From assembly GCA_002787355.1 (NCBI GenBank), contig PCWN01000008.1, positions 4-63,438 of the forward strand: 63,435 bases of DNA, in the 5' to 3' direction. Below are positions 13,310 through 27,756 of the stretch, in pieces. Every line of letters begins with the position of its first letter. The stretch's first letter is position 1. Source of the DNA: Candidatus Magasanikbacteria bacterium CG11_big_fil_rev_8_21_14_0_20_39_34. GTDB taxonomy: Bacteria > Patescibacteriota > Patescibacteriia > Magasanikbacterales > UBA922. Under the pieces are notes generated by a model. That model saw nothing but the letters and a program-made list of their open reading frames with translations. It did no database searches and was not told the origin of the DNA. Made by a program: the position numbers and the translations under genes.

Positions 13310-13383
13310 GGGCGAGTCGTATAATGGTAGTACATTGGTCTCCAAAACCAATTGCGTGGGTTCGATTCCTACCTCGCCTGCCA
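13310..13383 (+). tRNA. trnW: tRNA-Trp (anticodon CCA)
   Basis: Acceptor GGGCGAG/CTCGCCT, anticodon arm TTGGT-CTCCAAA-ACCAA, T-loop GTTCGATTC, CCA end. Upstream TTGATT-17-TAGTAT. Confidence 0.95.
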
Positions 13384-14973
13384 ACGTGTAATCACAGAGT
13401 CTAAAAGCTCTGTTTTTGCTTTATTTAAGCCATTTTTGTTTGGTTCTAACGCAAGATATTCGGCTTCCAGGGGTTTATACCCTTTTTTAATTGGATCAAA
13501 GTAACTATGTGGAGAATAAGCCAATTTTTGATCCTCTAGCAAAAAGTTCGAACCTAAACCACTCAATACTGCTTTTTTCTCTTCCAGAGTTCCATTTTCG
13601 AAATTCCCTTTTGCAAATCTTGCAAACTGAAATGCTTTCTCAGTAAGCTCCAACCAATCCTCGGCTCGCTGTTCTGTCTCTTGTACCTTTTCTTGTAAAT
13701 CTTTTATCTTTGCTTTAAGTTCGGTACTTTCTTTGATAAACATCTCGTCGTCTATCAATTCCCGATACCGCATCTTTGTCAGATTGTCGAGCTCCTTTTG
13801 AGTCTTTTCGAGTGAGCTGTGTTGCATTTCATAGATCTTCGTTCGGTCTACAATCTCTTGATCATTCTCTTGATTAAGTGCCTCCATCGCCCAATCAAAA
13901 AACTCTGGAAGGATCGTTAGTTTATCAATTTCATCCAAAATCATACCTTCTAAGGATGGCTCATCGATGGACCGACGCTGGGTACACTCGACGTCTCTTT
14001 TCCTTCTGGTGCAATGGTAGTACGTGTAGTACCTTAGTTCCTGACTTGCTTTAATAAACTTTTTTTTCTTTTCTGCAGTAATGCGACAACCACATTCCCC
14101 ACAGTTAATCATACCTGTAAAAGGAAAAACATAACTCTTTGGCCTCGGTTTTCCTTTCCTACCTAATATAACCTGTACCTGATCAAACTCTTCGAGTGTT
14201 ATCATTTTCTTATGTTTGCCGACGTATTCCTTCCCGTCGTATTCAAATACCCCTGTGTAAAAGAGATTTGTAAACACACGATAAAGTCCACTCATAGAAA
14301 GTGGCTTTCCACCCAATCGTTTTCGCTTTTTTGTTCGGAAGCCCCACTCGTCATTTAGCTTGGTGAGTATTTGAGGAACAGTATAATTTCCCGTAAGCAT
14401 GTAATCCCACGCCTTTCGGATGAGATCGAAGCGCTCAGGGTCTGGTATGAGCGTATGGTTTTCAAGTTCATTCAGATATCCTGTCGGCGCAAGACCAGGT
14501 TTCCACCCATTCTTTACCTTAAACAAGTTTCCTCGTTTTACATTCTTGCTTAGATCAAGGATAAACTGGTTTGCCATCCCACTTTCTACATTGAACAAAA
14601 GTACATTATCTTCTGGTCGATATTCACGATCTATCGTTTGAATTGATTTCAGAACCTTCTGCTGGAGCAACCACTGGATTTGTGCGCTATCAATCGGATT
14701 TCGTGATAGTCGGTTGATCTGCCAACAAAGAATGCCGTCAGCCTCACCAGCCTCGAGCCGTTCCATCATGCTAGTAAATACTGGTCGATTACTAGGTTTC
14801 TTGGCAGACTTGGCTTCTGTTAACACCTCCTTGATTGTAATACCGATGTTTTGTGCAAGCTCTTTGAGTCTATCAACTTGATCATCTATTGATTGCACTT
14901 GTCGATCCTCACTTTCAGACGATTTTCTCGCATAGAGAAAGTATGTGTAATTTTTGTTGTCATGGTAATTCAT
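13369..14973 (-). CDS. Large serine recombinase (catalytic, recombinase, zinc-ribbon and coiled-coil domains); stop codon inside tRNA-Trp
   Basis: YARKSSE catalytic Ser, INRLSRN, CGECG...YYHC...C zinc ribbon. Start placed at ATG 14973, just before the catalytic motif. Confidence 0.95.
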   Translation of the reverse strand: MNYHDNKNYTYFLYARKSSESEDRQVQSIDDQVDRLKELAQNIGITIKEVLTEAKSAKKPSNRPVFTSMMERLEAGEADGILCWQINRLSRNPIDSAQIQWLLQQKVLKSIQTIDREYRPEDNVLLFNVESGMANQFILDLSKNVKRGNLFKVKNGWKPGLAPTGYLNELENHTLIPDPERFDLIRKAWDYMLTGNYTVPQILTKLNDEWGFRTKKRKRLGGKPLSMSGLYRVFTNLFYTGVFEYDGKEYVGKHKKMITLEEFDQVQVILGRKGKPRPKSYVFPFTGMINCGECGCRITAEKKKKFIKASQELRYYTYYHCTRRKRDVECTQRRSIDEPSLEGMILDEIDKLTILPEFFDWAMEALNQENDQEIVDRTKIYEMQHSSLEKTQKELDNLTKMRYRELIDDEMFIKESTELKAKIKDLQEKVQETEQRAEDWLELTEKAFQFARFAKGNFENGTLEEKKAVLSGLGSNFLLEDQKLAYSPHSYFDPIKKGYKPLEAEYLALEPNKNGLNKAKTELLDSVITRWQAR

Positions 14974-14983
14974 ATTTTTTGAT

Positions 14984-15101
14984 ACAAAAAGGGACAGCCC
15001 CCGCTTACCCAACTCGTATGCCAAGAAGACATATTTGCTGGAAGGGCTGCCCTTCTTTGATCAAATAAAAATCTTCTTGGCTTTTTATGAATTGGGTAAG
15101 C
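14984..15101 (-). promoter_or_regulatory. Structured leader upstream of the recombinase
   Basis: Nested inverted repeats GCTTACCCAA/TTGGGTAAGC, GCCAAGAAGA/TCTTCTTGGC and TATTTG/CAAATA. Loop sequence is complementary to GGGCTGTCCCTTTTTG next to the start codon. Confidence 0.6.
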
Positions 15102-15113
15102 AACTAAAGTATA

Positions 15114-25550: not shown

Positions 25551-25618
25551 CTCTCTTTGCTGAAATCATCTTTGATAAATTCTTGGCAGAAGTCAAAAAG
25601 CAAAAAAATAGTGAGTAG
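25508..25618 (+). CDS. 36-aa hypothetical peptide, possibly a truncated relic
   Basis: MPETKDDQEVEEDLTLFAEIIFDKFLAEVKKQKNSE*. Confidence 0.4.
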   Translation: MPETKDDQEVEEDLTLFAEIIFDKFLAEVKKQKNSE

Positions 25619-25639
25619 CAGTGGAGAATAAAAATTACT

Positions 25640-27121
25640 ATGTATATTACAAAAACTGATTATCTCGAATATCTCTTCTGCAAGAAGAATTTTTGGCTCA
25701 AAAAACACAAACCTGAGCTTTTTGAGGATATAGAATTATCTGAATTTGAAAAGAAAATCGTTGAGGAAGGTAATATTGCCGATGAGACTGCACGCCACCT
25801 CTTTCCTGAAGGAGTTTTGGTTACTACACACGAACAGGAGGCTCTTGAAGACACAAATCAATATATTGACACGCATGAGAAAGTCATATTCCAAGGGGCA
25901 TTTTTTGTTGATTCTTTTTTGATTCGTGCAGATGTCATTGTTTGGGATGAAATCCTTGGTGGCTGGGAGCTTTATGAAGTAAAAGCTACAACCAAAGTAA
26001 AACGGGAGCAACTTCATAGCCACATAAAAGACATTGCCTTTCAGAAGGAAGTACTTACTCGTTCGGGGTTGTCAGTAGTAAAGTCTTGCATCATTCACCT
26101 TAATGGAGAGTACAAAAGACGTAAGGATATTTCATGGAGGGATGTTTTTGTCATTGAGGATGTCACTGACGAAGTAAAGGAAGTGGTAGATGAAGTATCC
26201 ATGGAGATGGATGAAATGAAGAAGGCTATGAATATGCCTGAAGGAAGCGGTTGCGCTTGTATCTATCGTGGCAGATCAAATCAGTGTACTACTTTTGCCT
26301 ACTCAAACCCCAAGGTACCTGAGTACAGCATTCATGACCTCCACAGAATCGGCTTGAGTAAGAAAAAACTTGAGGCTTGGGTAGATGAAGGTGTCTTTGC
26401 ACTTGAGGATATTCCCAATACTTCTATTCTCAACGACAAACAGGCTCTACAGGTACAGACATACCTATCGGGCGAGCCTTTTATTGACAGAGACAAGATT
26501 CGAAAAGAAATAGAATCACTTGAGTACCCACTGTACTTCTTTGATTACGAAGGGTATGGAACGGCCATACCTGAGTTTCAGGGATATGGGACCTTTGAGC
26601 AGGTACCCTTCCAGTATTCACTTCATATTATGCACGAAAACGGCGAAATTGAGCACAGAGAGCACCTGGTAAGGCAGAAACGCTCAGATATAGCAGGAAG
26701 CCTCGTAAAACAGCTTGCAGAGGATATTGGGCCGAAAGGAAGTATCATCTCATGGCATAAATCCTATGAGGTAGGGAGAAATAATACGTTAGCTCGGATA
26801 TACCCCAGTCACACTCACTTTTTTGAGGATATGAACGATCGTATGTTCGATCTTGAAAGCATATTCCTCAACCAACTGTATGTACATCCTGATTTCAAAG
26901 GAAAGACGAGTATCAAAAAGATTCTCCCAGTTTTGGTACCTGAACTTACCTACGACAAGCTTTCCGTGAAGGCTGGAGATCAAGCCATGGAGCGATGGGA
27001 GTATATGCTTTCAGAGGAATGTGAGGATGAAGAGGCTATCTACCATGATCTGTTAGAGTATTGTAAACAAGATACGTGGGCAATGGTAAAAATTTACGAG
27101 GAATTATTGGCACTACTATGA
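25640..27121 (+). CDS. DUF2779 protein (PD-(D/E)XK/RecB-like nuclease plus RNase H-like domain)
   Basis: RADVI...LYEVKATT...DIAFQ; YFFDYE, QVPFQYSLH, GKTSIKKILP, LLEYCKQDT. Confidence 0.85.
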   Translation: MYITKTDYLEYLFCKKNFWLKKHKPELFEDIELSEFEKKIVEEGNIADETARHLFPEGVLVTTHEQEALEDTNQYIDTHEKVIFQGAFFVDSFLIRADVIVWDEILGGWELYEVKATTKVKREQLHSHIKDIAFQKEVLTRSGLSVVKSCIIHLNGEYKRRKDISWRDVFVIEDVTDEVKEVVDEVSMEMDEMKKAMNMPEGSGCACIYRGRSNQCTTFAYSNPKVPEYSIHDLHRIGLSKKKLEAWVDEGVFALEDIPNTSILNDKQALQVQTYLSGEPFIDRDKIRKEIESLEYPLYFFDYEGYGTAIPEFQGYGTFEQVPFQYSLHIMHENGEIEHREHLVRQKRSDIAGSLVKQLAEDIGPKGSIISWHKSYEVGRNNTLARIYPSHTHFFEDMNDRMFDLESIFLNQLYVHPDFKGKTSIKKILPVLVPELTYDKLSVKAGDQAMERWEYMLSEECEDEEAIYHDLLEYCKQDTWAMVKIYEELLALL

Positions 27122-27684
27122 ATAGCGATGAAAAGTATCCCGAAGGACAAATGCAAAGAAATGTTACGGATTATATAAATGATTCAATTGACAGATTAAA
27201 AGAATGGTGTAGTCTACTAGAATTGATTAAAACGAAACGTGAAGAGCTACCTAAACATAAAAAAGTTTTCAATTCACTTATTGATGTCTATAGTCGAGAC
27301 ATGATAAATGTCCTTTCAAACGTATTGGATCAAAATAAACAAACATCTTCACTTTTTACACTCTTGTCGTACATAGAAACTAACAAAGAAAGTACAAACT
27401 ATAGAAAAAAAATCGATAAAATTAAGCTAGAAGTAAATGATTATATAATCACAAGAGGCGCACACACTGGTCACTTTAATACAAAACACAATTCTTATCC
27501 AAATGATCGACTTCCATTAAACACCCCTATTTCTGTCAATCAAGAATTCATGACAGGCATAGTTAATAGAATCGAGGATTTATTTTGGAAAATGAAAGAA
27601 GAAGCTAAAATAGACGGAGTGTTTGTTAGCACACATAATTGGACTATGAGAGATGCCTTTAGTGATTTTATTTCATCTCTTTAA
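27118..27684 (+). CDS. HEPN (AbiU2-like) putative RNase
   Basis: Helical protein with an RGAHTGH (Rx5H) motif and SSLFTLL. ATGA overlap with DUF2779. Confidence 0.55.
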   Translation: MNSDEKYPEGQMQRNVTDYINDSIDRLKEWCSLLELIKTKREELPKHKKVFNSLIDVYSRDMINVLSNVLDQNKQTSSLFTLLSYIETNKESTNYRKKIDKIKLEVNDYIITRGAHTGHFNTKHNSYPNDRLPLNTPISVNQEFMTGIVNRIEDLFWKMKEEAKIDGVFVSTHNWTMRDAFSDFISSL

Positions 27685-27756
27685 GCTAGGGTAGGTACTC
27701 TAACGTATCCCTCCTCTTTCTTCATCATAGTTCCAACATCCTCTACGATCCCCTGC
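27681..27756 (-). other. attR P-arm encoding the detached C-terminal tail of the LSR
   Basis: CAG GGG ATC GTA GAG GAT GTT GGA ACT ... CCT ACC CTA GCT TAA = QGIVEDVGTMMKKEEGYVRVPTLA*, in frame with the LSR Gln codon across the GCAGG core. Confidence 0.8.

Follow-up and report, generated by a model that had tools for sequence, protein, structure and literature searches.

A large serine recombinase gene probably split by its own attachment site at the 3' end of a tRNA-Trp gene in a Magasanikbacteria genome

The analysed stretch of DNA (the window, 63,435 nucleotides of contig PCWN01000008.1 from Candidatus Magasanikbacteria bacterium CG11_big_fil_rev_8_21_14_0_20_39_34) carries a mobile island of 14,375 bp inserted at the 3' end of a tRNA-Trp gene. 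It is very probably an integrated element moved by a large serine recombinase (LSR) whose attP site sits within the 3' end of its own gene. The LSR targets the 3' acceptor end of a tRNA, here tRNA-Trp, with crossover in a 4–7-nt core at about tRNA positions 71–74. Integration detaches the last 23 codons of the gene, parking this tail at the opposite end of the island, and two tRNA-antisense codons then close the chromosomal integrase copy. The position of attP inside the integrase gene thus means that insertion swaps the last 23 aa of the enzyme. The features of the island are the following.

13310..13383, plus strand: tRNA-Trp(cca), the target gene (ARAGORN)
13369..15024, minus strand: LSR, integrated short isoform (Pfam Resolvase, Recombinase, Zn_ribbon_recom)
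13377..13381: attL core CCTGC, at tRNA positions ~70–74
13384..13420, plus strand: attP P' arm, complementary to the final ~12 codons of the integrase
15114..19162, minus strand: conserved backbone of six ORFs, on the integrase strand
19423..27684, plus strand: variable cargo (Pfam; PADLOC)
19423–22077, plus strand: MmeI-like type IIG restriction-modification enzyme (PADLOC REase_MTase_IIG, E = 4e-290)
22067–24001, plus strand: helicase (Pfam)
24007–25152, plus strand: T5orf172 protein (Pfam)
25640–27121, plus strand: DUF2779/Cas4-like nuclease (Pfam)
27076–27684, plus strand: 202-aa ORF
27681..27755, minus strand: displaced integrase 3' end, Q + 23-residue tail + stop (translation, profile, homolog tails, codons)
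27729–27752, minus strand: attP P arm, the first part of the displaced tail, holding the motif GTTGGAACT at 27729–27737
27752..27756: attR core CCTGC, matching the attL core
27757..27830, plus strand: B' arm, the native tRNA-Trp trailer with hairpin and T-run (original terminator)

Anatomy of the island and its attachment sites

Counted from a TTG codon, the LSR reading frame comprises 551 aa; counted from the ATG at 14973, the start used in database entry P0001, it comprises 534 aa. Residues 29–165 match PF00239 (resolvase-type catalytic domain, E = 1.4e-18), PF07508 (Recombinase) and PF13408 (zinc ribbon) are matched as well, and R16, K17 and S18 are invariant in an alignment of 24 homologs. 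A total of 5,120 homologs were found. The AF2 model of homolog P0003 features long helices at residues 356–403 and 409–460 and has whole-length similarity in Foldseek (E = 1e-19 to 1e-13) to the integrases of SPbeta, PhiC31 and Bxb1, the top matches being the SPbeta integrase chains 9y66/9dxh (E = 1e-19). In this model helix 517–544 passes through W531 and the tail has a pLDDT of 82–96, a high confidence that depends on an alignment deliberately enriched in tail-bearing sequences (46 of 68 rows). By its domains, fold, short core and shifted half-site motif, the window protein is assigned to the large serine recombinases. A split integrase of the SSV1 type was also considered and rejected: Pfam and Foldseek identify the protein as a serine recombinase, without the chemistry of tyrosine recombinases.

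As had been read from the letters alone, the LSR stops inside tRNA-Trp. Its integrated end is T-R-W-Q-A-R-stop, with the stop codon at 13369–13371, and the W codon TGG at 13381–13383 is the antisense of the tRNA-Trp CCA. Judging by sequence, tRNA-Trp is host-derived up to about 13380 and the CCA at 13381–13383 is supplied by the element; 9 of the 41 tRNA genes of the genome end in CCA. On the plus strand CCTGC is the sole identity common to both island junctions, and the crossover dinucleotide lies somewhere inside the CCTGC core of attL. The continuation of the gene claimed for the far end is found there: the minus strand from 27755 to 27681 reads in frame QGIVEDVGTMMKKEEGYVRVPTLA, then a stop, the tail starting I-V-E-D-V-G-T and including G-Y-V-R-V-P. 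Joining at the common 5-nt core is in frame and gives, by arithmetic, the predicted 555 aa (531 + 1 + 23) against 534 aa when integrated. A window-free profile made of 10 tails from other sources was scanned against 44,261 six-frame fragments of the whole 1.18-Mb genome, of which this exact spot is the best match (E = 3.6e-5), followed by a runner-up with E = 0.13.

The native tRNA-Trp trailer was shifted 14.4 kb away from the tRNA by integration, and carries in the B' arm a conserved TATACC...TTAGAACTTTT stretch. An empty tRNA-Trp was expected to precede this trailer directly, and it does so in relatives, where the tRNA gene is CCA-less and a homologous trailer with its terminator comes next (G013, G020, G004, G019, G016 and others). 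Read in the tRNA sense, the P' arm provides a 9-nt spacer, a hairpin ACAGAG/CTCTGT (13394–13413) and TTTTT; the last ~20 integrase codons hold, in antisense, CCA, a covarying hairpin and a T-run. The order CCA, 9 nt, 6–10-bp stem and TTTTT is found in the window and in most of the 76 folded sequences, the hairpin being weak in the tRNA-His subgroup. In 73 family members (72 distinct loci and the window) 82.8% of stem cells are paired versus 69.2% in shuffles and two-sided changes amount to 88 versus 37.5, values that none of 500 shuffles reaches; slid controls score 0.085–0.131 versus 0.413 for the hairpin. Because integration displaces the native terminator, the hairpin and T-run likely constitute a replacement intrinsic terminator for the tRNA.

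According to Rutherford et al. 2013 (PMC3783163), the motif in one arm of LSR sites is placed 5 bp farther from the centre in attP than it is in attB. In 13 of 14 pairs of the present family GAA[CT] is located at +18 in the B arm and at +23 in the P arm, the remaining pair being cut off at the locus end; the P'/B' side of the att pairs has no clear common motif. This 5-bp outward position of GAAC in the P arm corresponds to the known attP-versus-attB geometry of LSRs, and the P arm, coding for the beginning of the tail, would mimic the tRNA T-arm with its GAAC motif 5 bp further out.

Next to int, on its upstream side, the backbone codes for a 207-aa Cys-rich protein, followed by ORFs of 86, 137 and 77 aa, a 93-aa DUF5659 protein whose gene is found in ~60 loci (tblastn), and a 572-aa protein. 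Apart from DUF5659, searches of Pfam, PHROGs and PADLOC gave no match to the backbone genes.

Recurrence of the arrangement among CPR bacteria

Judging from its loci, the same design is recurrent in many ultra-small CPR/Patescibacteria, in which the family is widespread. TGG occupies the W position in 75 of 80 genome loci, and at least 80 nt extend beyond W in 74. A tRNA on the opposite strand begins exactly at the integrase W codon in 63 of the 80 loci and within 3 nt in 66. The tRNAs concerned fall into ten types: His (22), Asn (11), Trp (10), Gln (10), Ser (6), Met (2), Ile (2), Glu (1), Lys (1) and Asp (1). Islands of the family are 5.9–14.4 kb long, and their core, of 5 nt in the window and 4–7 nt in 13 other attL/attR pairs, always spans in the latter the last G of the W codon and the next 3 nt. 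Far-end tails are present in 12 other loci, 5.9–11 kb upstream of int and on its strand, as detected by profile search (L010, L011, L014, L019 with two, L021, L025, L026, L030, L034, L051, L075 and L078). The same search gave two tail matches in G001. Eight of the upstream matches are non-seed sequences, and each match with E < 1e-4 lies on the expected strand.

Two classes of integrase C-termini had been predicted and both are recognized. Of the 120 nearest homologs, 65 continue through tRNA-antisense sequence, 43 stop at most 5 aa after W and 7 are tailed (the class of 5 is unclear). Intact homologs with a tail, also anticipated, include P0003 (77% identical) and P0005 (74%), whose tails resemble the distal one of the window. 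A metagenome pattern scan shows the tail in 74 of 123 matches. The integrase of the episomal form would run uninterrupted into the tail, and a form with this continuous reading frame exists in metagenome contigs (L099, L127, L185, L175, L178, L115 and L143). The whole 10,794-bp contig L175 begins in the integrase C-terminus and tail and ends in integrase residues 6–439, lacking ~50 codons of int. Its relative L112 shares this tail DNA, whereas the sequence left of TGGCGG is a tRNA-Ser, and homology between L175 (attP form) and L112 (integrated) breaks at TGGCGG. None of 11 metagenome contigs checked for circularity has terminal repeats.

Possible roles of the exchanged tail

The sequence-only reading took the tail for a built-in directionality or stability switch. 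The anatomy of this interpretation stands, namely attP in the 3' end of the LSR gene, a 4–7-nt core at the tRNA acceptor end and an exchanged C-terminal tail, while its functional part does not reach the same firmness. The 555-aa form made from the circle would be the enzyme that integrates, and the 534-aa form of the prophage would differ from it in activity, directionality or stability; the chances for and against any functional difference between the two, in either direction, are evenly balanced. Somewhat short of even is the probability that the tail swap is a tolerated by-product, the isoforms being alike and direction being set by a separate factor, for which the 207-aa neighbour of int is a candidate. 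The attP site would then lie in the gene because a compact element must put CCA and a terminator beside the tRNA. This fits the integrated copies, whose tRNA-antisense ends range from 1 to more than 60 residues and in which nothing conserved takes the place of the tail, implying that the enzyme tolerates varied ends or that the ends are irrelevant once integrated. It also agrees with the conservation of the 207-aa gene immediately upstream of int in 41 loci (tblastn) and with the use of a separate directionality factor by known LSRs (PMC11722253 and PMC5737554). The Y-x-Y-I-P motif of the tail argues in the opposite direction. Located 45–60 nt from the crossover, beyond the 25-bp half-site, it is kept in subfamilies whose targets are Trp, Asn, Gln, His and Lys tRNAs, and its codons vary at synonymous sites (TAT/TAC; ATA/ATT/ATC; CCA/CCT/CCC/CCG), which points to selection on the protein. 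A functionally neutral swap is likewise harder to reconcile with the cut that integration makes in helix 517–544, predicted with confidence in the P0003 model, and with the enrichment of C-terminal -AA endings in tail-class homologs (11/46 versus 2/224 in others). Note that these endings are restricted to distant tail-class homologs and that the window tail ends in -TLA. The host genome encodes ClpP and a tmRNA, and the tmRNA region holds an ORF with a -PVVA end, a candidate for the tag frame.

Conservation of the tail appears to be in part a DNA constraint of the attP P arm rather than a protein one. The V-R/G-T codons (GTT-AGA/GGA-ACT) are nearly fixed as DNA and the motif resembles the antisense of the tRNA T-loop, offset by 5 bp. 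These features favor the idea that the tail is nothing but a translated P arm, conserved for recombinase binding and never a functional part of the protein, which is nevertheless highly improbable: conservation extends ~40 nt past the expected half-site with free synonymous change, the integrase ORF enters the tail in frame in attP-type contigs, and tail-type proteins, in homologs down to ~37% identity, keep an open frame to a stop 17–35 residues after W. It is rather doubtful that the window copy is a fixed, immobile remnant whose arrangement records a past insertion. Two conserved positions of the family consensus are changed in its tail (Y-V-R-V-P versus Y-x-Y-I-P), which may indicate decay, and integrase-less scars made of CCA and a few integrase-antisense codons are found at tRNA-Trp in G008 and G023. 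Logan contigs of runs X3, X8, X9 and X10, which include contigs bridging attL and attR, have no attP/attB excision joint of the window copy, a weak negative because contigs drop rare variants. The integrase ORF of the window is intact with all its domains, as are the backbone genes, and the frame of the tail is open to its stop, all of which speaks against a remnant. The question of a remnant touches the activity of the window copy alone and leaves the anatomy unaffected.

The preferred reading of an LSR with attP in its own gene can be extended to an unlikely scheme that joins a three-code stretch, a two-state integration switch and integron-like cassettes mobilised in trans. Some 90 bp would hold three codes: the integrase C-terminus, both attP arms, and the antisense CCA with the tRNA terminator. 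The circle would make a tail-bearing integrating enzyme, with an -AA degron in part of the family, and the chromosome a clipped enzyme that differs in directionality or stability; such an intrinsic two-state switch would dispense with a classical directionality factor. Integrase-less single-gene units composed of tail remnant, core and trailer are stacked behind tRNA-Trp in G013 and G001, and would be the cassettes mobilised in trans. If true, a serine recombinase would run an integron-like gene-capture system at the tRNA genes of CPR bacteria.

Relation to known integration systems

No description of a serine integrase gene split by its own integration was found in the literature searched. 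The window enzyme shares with A118/LI, Bxb1, PhiC31 and SPbeta SprA the Resolvase, Recombinase and zinc ribbon domains and a long coiled coil, and with phage and island LSRs the whole-length fold, the very short common core and the 5-bp motif shift between attP and attB. The A118/LI, Bxb1, PhiC31 and SPbeta LSRs are not known to have attP inside the integrase ORF and target mostly protein-coding genes, whereas the window attP lies within the last ~30 codons of the enzyme itself and its target is the CCA end of a tRNA. Int-S prophages of M. abscessus insert within ORFs, as reported in PMC8092301.

The same paper (PMC8092301) describes immunity that depends on integration in mycobacteriophages (BPs, M. 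abscessus prophages), in which attP is inside a gene and, as a result, the C-terminus of the viral product differs from that of the prophage product by 20–35 residues. The stop arises at attL, in some cases within sequence derived from a tRNA, and many viral forms bear -AA degradation tags that are removed by integration (PMC8092301). The split gene of mycobacteriophages is the repressor and their integrase a tyrosine recombinase, while in the window it is the gene of the serine integrase that is split.

Archaeal tyrosine integrases of the SSV1 type have attP inside the integrase gene, target tRNA genes and have their gene split by integration; their long identical core regenerates the tRNA, and both parts of the divided gene are large. 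The window resembles them in one respect, attP within the integrase gene. Its enzyme belongs to an unrelated family with a different chemistry, and exchanges its last 23 residues while keeping every known domain. Islander-type islands bring along a duplicate of the tRNA 3' part, which forms a long direct repeat, whereas the window family has 4–7 nt in common with its target. The Islander type, inserted at tRNA 3' ends by tyrosine integrases, keeps the tRNA usable after insertion, according to PMC4383910. The window family differs in supplying just CCA and a putative terminator, both in antisense of the integrase coding sequence.

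The integrase-tRNA junction and its family

The integrase gene of the island (int) ends inside a tRNA gene, and the continuation of its reading frame is found at the opposite end of the element. The features at the two junctions are:

13310..13383, plus strand: tRNA-Trp(cca), as assigned by ARAGORN
13369..15024, minus strand: large serine recombinase ORF, 551 aa from TTG, 534 aa from ATG as in its database entry P0001
27755 to 27681, minus strand: displaced integrase tail QGIVEDVGTMMKKEEGYVRVPTLA, then a stop codon (from translation)

Besides a Resolvase domain (E = 1.4e-18), the int product has Recombinase and Zn_ribbon_recom domains; it is a true large serine recombinase (LSR). 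Its carboxyl terminus reads T-R-W-Q-A-R-stop, the stop codon lying within tRNA-Trp, and the Trp codon (13381-13383) is formed by the same bases that ARAGORN assigns to the tRNA CCA. The tRNA-side junction (attL) and the far junction (attR) are identical only over CCTGC (13377-13381; 27752-27756), their equivalent positions are 14,375 bp apart and their reading frames agree. Re-reading of the sequence bore out every statement of the sequence-only reading on the LSR end in the tRNA, the distal tail, the short core and the frame. A profile seeded with ten tails from elsewhere, the window being omitted, was searched against 44,261 six-frame fragments of the entire 1.18-Mb genome. Its top match is exactly the window tail on the same strand (E = 3.6e-5), the runner-up having E = 0.13; the tail at the far junction is more than chance. 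The anatomy, with attP within the 3' end of int and the tail swapped on integration, is very probably correct.

Integrase homologs with E <= 1e-3 number 5,120 among the candidates scored, with CPR/Patescibacteria source names, and a wider search yielded 17,864 representatives at E <= 1e-3, only part of which belong to the tRNA-targeting group. The two classes of carboxyl termini that had been predicted, tRNA-antisense ends and tail ends, both exist among the 120 closest homologs. Classed by simple patterns, these comprise 65 proteins ending in W-x5-(S/L)-N, which is the translation of the antisense tRNA T-loop in the integrase frame, 43 that stop at most 5 residues past W, 7 with a non-tRNA tail and 5 that are unclear. 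The homologs P0003 (77% identical) and P0005 (74%) carry the carboxyl terminus W-Q-A-I-V-(M/E)-D-V-G-T...G-Y-(V/I)-Y-I-P, which resembles the displaced tail of the window. Both classes recur in the best 150 of the 17,864 representatives, where 34 of the 150 are unclear by pattern and some "tail" calls are false.

One genome per species was scanned, which gave 80 loci. The conserved W codon is TGG in 75 of them, and 74 have at least 80 nt beyond W. A tRNA on the opposite strand starts exactly at the W codon in 63 loci and within 3 nt of it in 66; the targets are tRNA-His (22), Asn (11), Trp (10), Gln (10), Ser (6), Met (2), Ile (2), Glu (1), Lys (1) and Asp (1). Profile searches of the six-frame translated loci located far-end tails upstream of int, on the same strand, in L010, L011, L014, L019 (two), L021, L025, L026, L030, L034, L051, L075 and L078, as well as twice in G001, a genome of the same genus. 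The seeds did not include eight of the matches, and all tail matches with E < 1e-4 are on the expected strand. Island sizes in the family range from 5.9 to 14.4 kb. In every attL/attR pair the common core is limited to the final G of the W codon and the three bases after it, or seven bases at most, at about positions 74 to 71 of the tRNA. Where the host tRNA has an encoded CCA, the W codon is found also at attR.

An empty tRNA-Trp in relatives had been expected to precede the sequence found at the distal flank of the island. The tRNA-Trp of host relatives mostly terminates in ...GCCTGC without CCA, and a hairpin and a T-run follow (G013, G020, G004, G019, G010, G003, G016). The trailers of G013, G020 and G016 resemble the window from 27757 onward, including the TATAC...GAACTTTT stretch; they are homologous yet not identical because these genomes belong to other genera, and nothing contrary to the expectation was seen. 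CCA is encoded at the end of just 9 of the 41 tRNA genes in the window's genome; the CCA of the occupied tRNA-Trp is therefore supplied by the element. Two loci, L212 (G008) and L236 (G023), have tRNA-Trp with CCA and ~12 integrase-antisense codons (CCGTGTAATGACAGA...) with no integrase behind. As scars, they show that decayed elements leave CCA, in G008 also the terminator, on the tRNA.

Note that the window carries GTTAGAACTTTT at 27800-27830, ~50 nt beyond the native terminator, with similar sites in L216 and L231 and the equivalent GGAATCGAACTTTT in G016. This outward-pointing motif is that of the P arm (element side of attP) and of the T-loop antisense, and may be the relic of a tRNA fragment or an additional binding site.

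Constraints on the tail and the putative terminator

The tail is under both protein and DNA constraint. The V-(R/G)-T codons are nearly invariant as DNA (GTT AGA/GGA ACT); the most plausible reading of these fixed codons is the P arm of attP. GAA(C/T) is found 18 nt past the W codon in the tRNA arm (T-loop antisense) vs 23 nt past the equivalent position in the P arm, a spacing present in 13 of 14 pairs, the 14th being truncated by the locus end. The zinc-ribbon motif of serine integrases is located 5 bp further inward in attB than in attP, and the 5-bp offset of GAA(C/T) matches this rule (Rutherford et al. 2013, PMC3783163). The P' and B' arms were compared by eye for a common motif (GTAAT; in certain subgroups GTTC), with nothing consistent found. 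Free synonymous variation (TAT/TAC; ATA/ATT/ATC; CCA/CCT/CCC/CCG) is seen 45-60 nt away from the crossover, in the Y-(I/V)-Y-I-P segment, and argues that the tail is a working part of the protein. The AlphaFold model of P0003 has a mean pLDDT of 90 and a single helix (517-544) running through W531, the tail scoring 82-96, values that may be inflated by an alignment enriched in tail-bearing rows (46/68). Integration would cut this helix. The window tail has R and V at the Y and I positions of the family, and both G001 tails differ at the first of these too; the departures may reflect a habit of the clade or decay.

In the tRNA sense, CCA precedes a 9-nt spacer, a hairpin of 6-10 bp and TTTTT; the window (13384-13417) and most of the 76 folded sequences (75 loci and the window) show this arrangement. 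In the gap-free covariation alignment of 73 distinct sequences, the hairpin positions pair in 82.8% of cells vs 69.2% in shuffles (0/500 as high), two-sided changes affect 88 cells vs 37.5 (0/500), and the covariation score is 0.413 vs 0.187 in shuffles and 0.085-0.131 with the partners slid. Pairing is maintained despite amino-acid changes (KTEALTSV, KSEQLHSL, KTAALSAV). The tRNA-His subgroup forms this hairpin poorly, and similar hairpins are found behind most tRNA genes of the window's genome. Because integration moves the native terminator 14.4 kb away, the element is proposed to provide the tRNA with a putative substitute terminator.

The uninterrupted gene, excision and the two isoforms

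A metagenome scan with the degenerate pattern "W codon + 6 nt + P arm" retrieved at least 119 stretches. The tail follows the pattern in 74 of the 123 metagenome matches listed, most of which are attR-type junctions, and the integrase frame continues directly into the tail in L099, L127, L185, L175, L178, L115 and L143. L175 is an entire contig of 10,794 bp that begins 40 codons before W, passes through the tail and has integrase residues 6-439 at its other end. It has the form expected of a putative circle opened within int, about 50 codons being absent; terminal direct repeats, looked for as proof of circularity, were found in 0 of 11 metagenome contigs. In L112, a relative of L175, the DNA rightward from TGGCGG is nearly the same, and leftward there are tRNA-Ser and unrelated sequence, so that the homology breakpoint falls at the predicted crossover.

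A further integrase with a full tail (W-G-H-I-V-E-V-V-R-T...) is encoded at 10001-11650 of L086, a chromosome-sized genome contig (759 kb), with no tRNA within the 21.6-kb locus. This is either an attP-type junction inside a larger element or another mode of chromosomal residence.

Excision was searched in Logan contigs of X3, X8, X9 and X10, from 22 groundwater/aquifer runs, against window 12000-28800. Runs X9 and X10, picked because their word share (about 0.25) hinted at the flank alone, carry the island too, at low depth. The attP or attB joints looked for were absent from the contigs of the four runs, in which only attL and attR are bridged and which hide rare forms.

The long isoform of the circle and the short one of the integrated element might differ in directionality or stability, or the tail swap might be a by-product without functional effect. 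The chances that any functional difference exists seem about even. A stability role is hinted at by distant relatives, in which -AA ends resembling ssrA-type degradation tags occur in 11 of 46 tail-class proteins (P0145, P0146, P0148, P0157, P0173, P0187, P0231, P0244, P0252, P0256 and P0268, with -KAA, -LAA, -IAA, -RAA or -HAA) vs 2 of 224 others. These ends recall the tags that are removed by integration in the integration-dependent immunity of mycobacteriophages (PMC8092301). The window tail itself ends with -TLA. ClpP is present in the window's genome; ARAGORN found no tmRNA there, and Rfam RF00023 identifies one. The candidate ORF in the tmRNA region ends with -PVVA, with no match to the -TLA of the window tail.

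Island content and comparison with known systems

The remaining annotated features of the island are:

15114-15737, minus strand: 207-aa Cys-rich protein, immediately upstream of int, likewise in 41 related loci (tblastn)
17010-17291, minus strand: 93-aa DUF5659 protein, in about 60 loci (tblastn), the most widespread backbone gene
19423-27121: cargo, an apparent defence cluster with an MmeI-like type IIG RM enzyme (PADLOC E = 4e-290), a helicase, a T5orf172 protein and a DUF2779/Cas4-like nuclease

The 207-aa protein, without match in Pfam, PADLOC or PHROGs and placed by the protein atlas only in hypothetical-protein clusters, is a candidate accessory or directionality factor. The DUF5659 gene is present also in the attP-form contig L175 and in its integrated relative L112, and smaller ORFs near int on the integrase strand recur across the family as well. 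No function was assigned to the backbone genes by PADLOC, PHROGs or the protein atlas. A prophage or viral origin was considered. Of 12 pattern matches in the IMG/VR scan one was a relative, L089, which is 35% identical and again abuts tRNA-His, and PHROGs gave 0 families for 7 backbone ORFs; the element is therefore not called a prophage and is read as a defence-carrying integrative island.

Repeated junctions of the type "tail remnant - CCTGC - tRNA-trailer copy", without integrase between them, are found behind tRNA-Trp in L008 (G013:C1, 8825-10500) and L007 (G001:C10, about 7200, 15900 and 17270). G013 has two single-gene units (a 215-aa serine-hydrolase-like and a 199-aa CAAX-protease-like protein), and the three repeated junctions of G001 lie 21-33 kb away from its integrase. 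A "P arm - core - B' trailer" junction is not a product of ordinary tandem LSR insertion; these units may be integrase-less cassettes mobilised in trans.

To our knowledge, little is known of CPR mobile elements, and the present family is revealed as a major carrier of defence genes in these bacteria. Serine integrases are prized for genome engineering because only two short sites are needed, and how their direction is set is an active structural question; structure-search matches include 2026 cryo-EM entries for the integrases of SPbeta, PhiC31 and Bxb1. With an enzyme whose carboxyl terminus is rewritten by its own reaction, a state switch that is built in and needs no factor can be tested directly in a large natural family. 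The family offers integrases for near-universal tRNA ends, ten tRNA types being used, and shows an element preserving tRNA function with just 4-7 nt of target identity. In addition, it illustrates clearly how RNA-structure and DNA-site constraints shape a protein sequence, with compensating amino-acid changes.

In the literature covered, mostly outside subscription journals and survey supplements (tables of predicted att sites), neither an LSR whose gene contains its attP nor LSRs that target tRNA CCA ends were found described; 10.1101/2020.12.28.424599, PMC8092301, 10.1101/2025.09.16.676606, PMC13059738 and PMC12911398 are among the papers covered. The components have counterparts elsewhere. 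An attP within the integrase gene is a known trait of SSV1-type tyrosine integrases. Mycobacteriophages have attP inside the repressor gene (PMC8092301), and tRNA 3' ends are classic targets of tyrosine integrases (PMC4383910). The combination of a serine integrase, attP in its own coding end, a tRNA CCA target and an antisense CCA-plus-terminator is what sets the present family apart, a combination apparently unreported in the literature covered.
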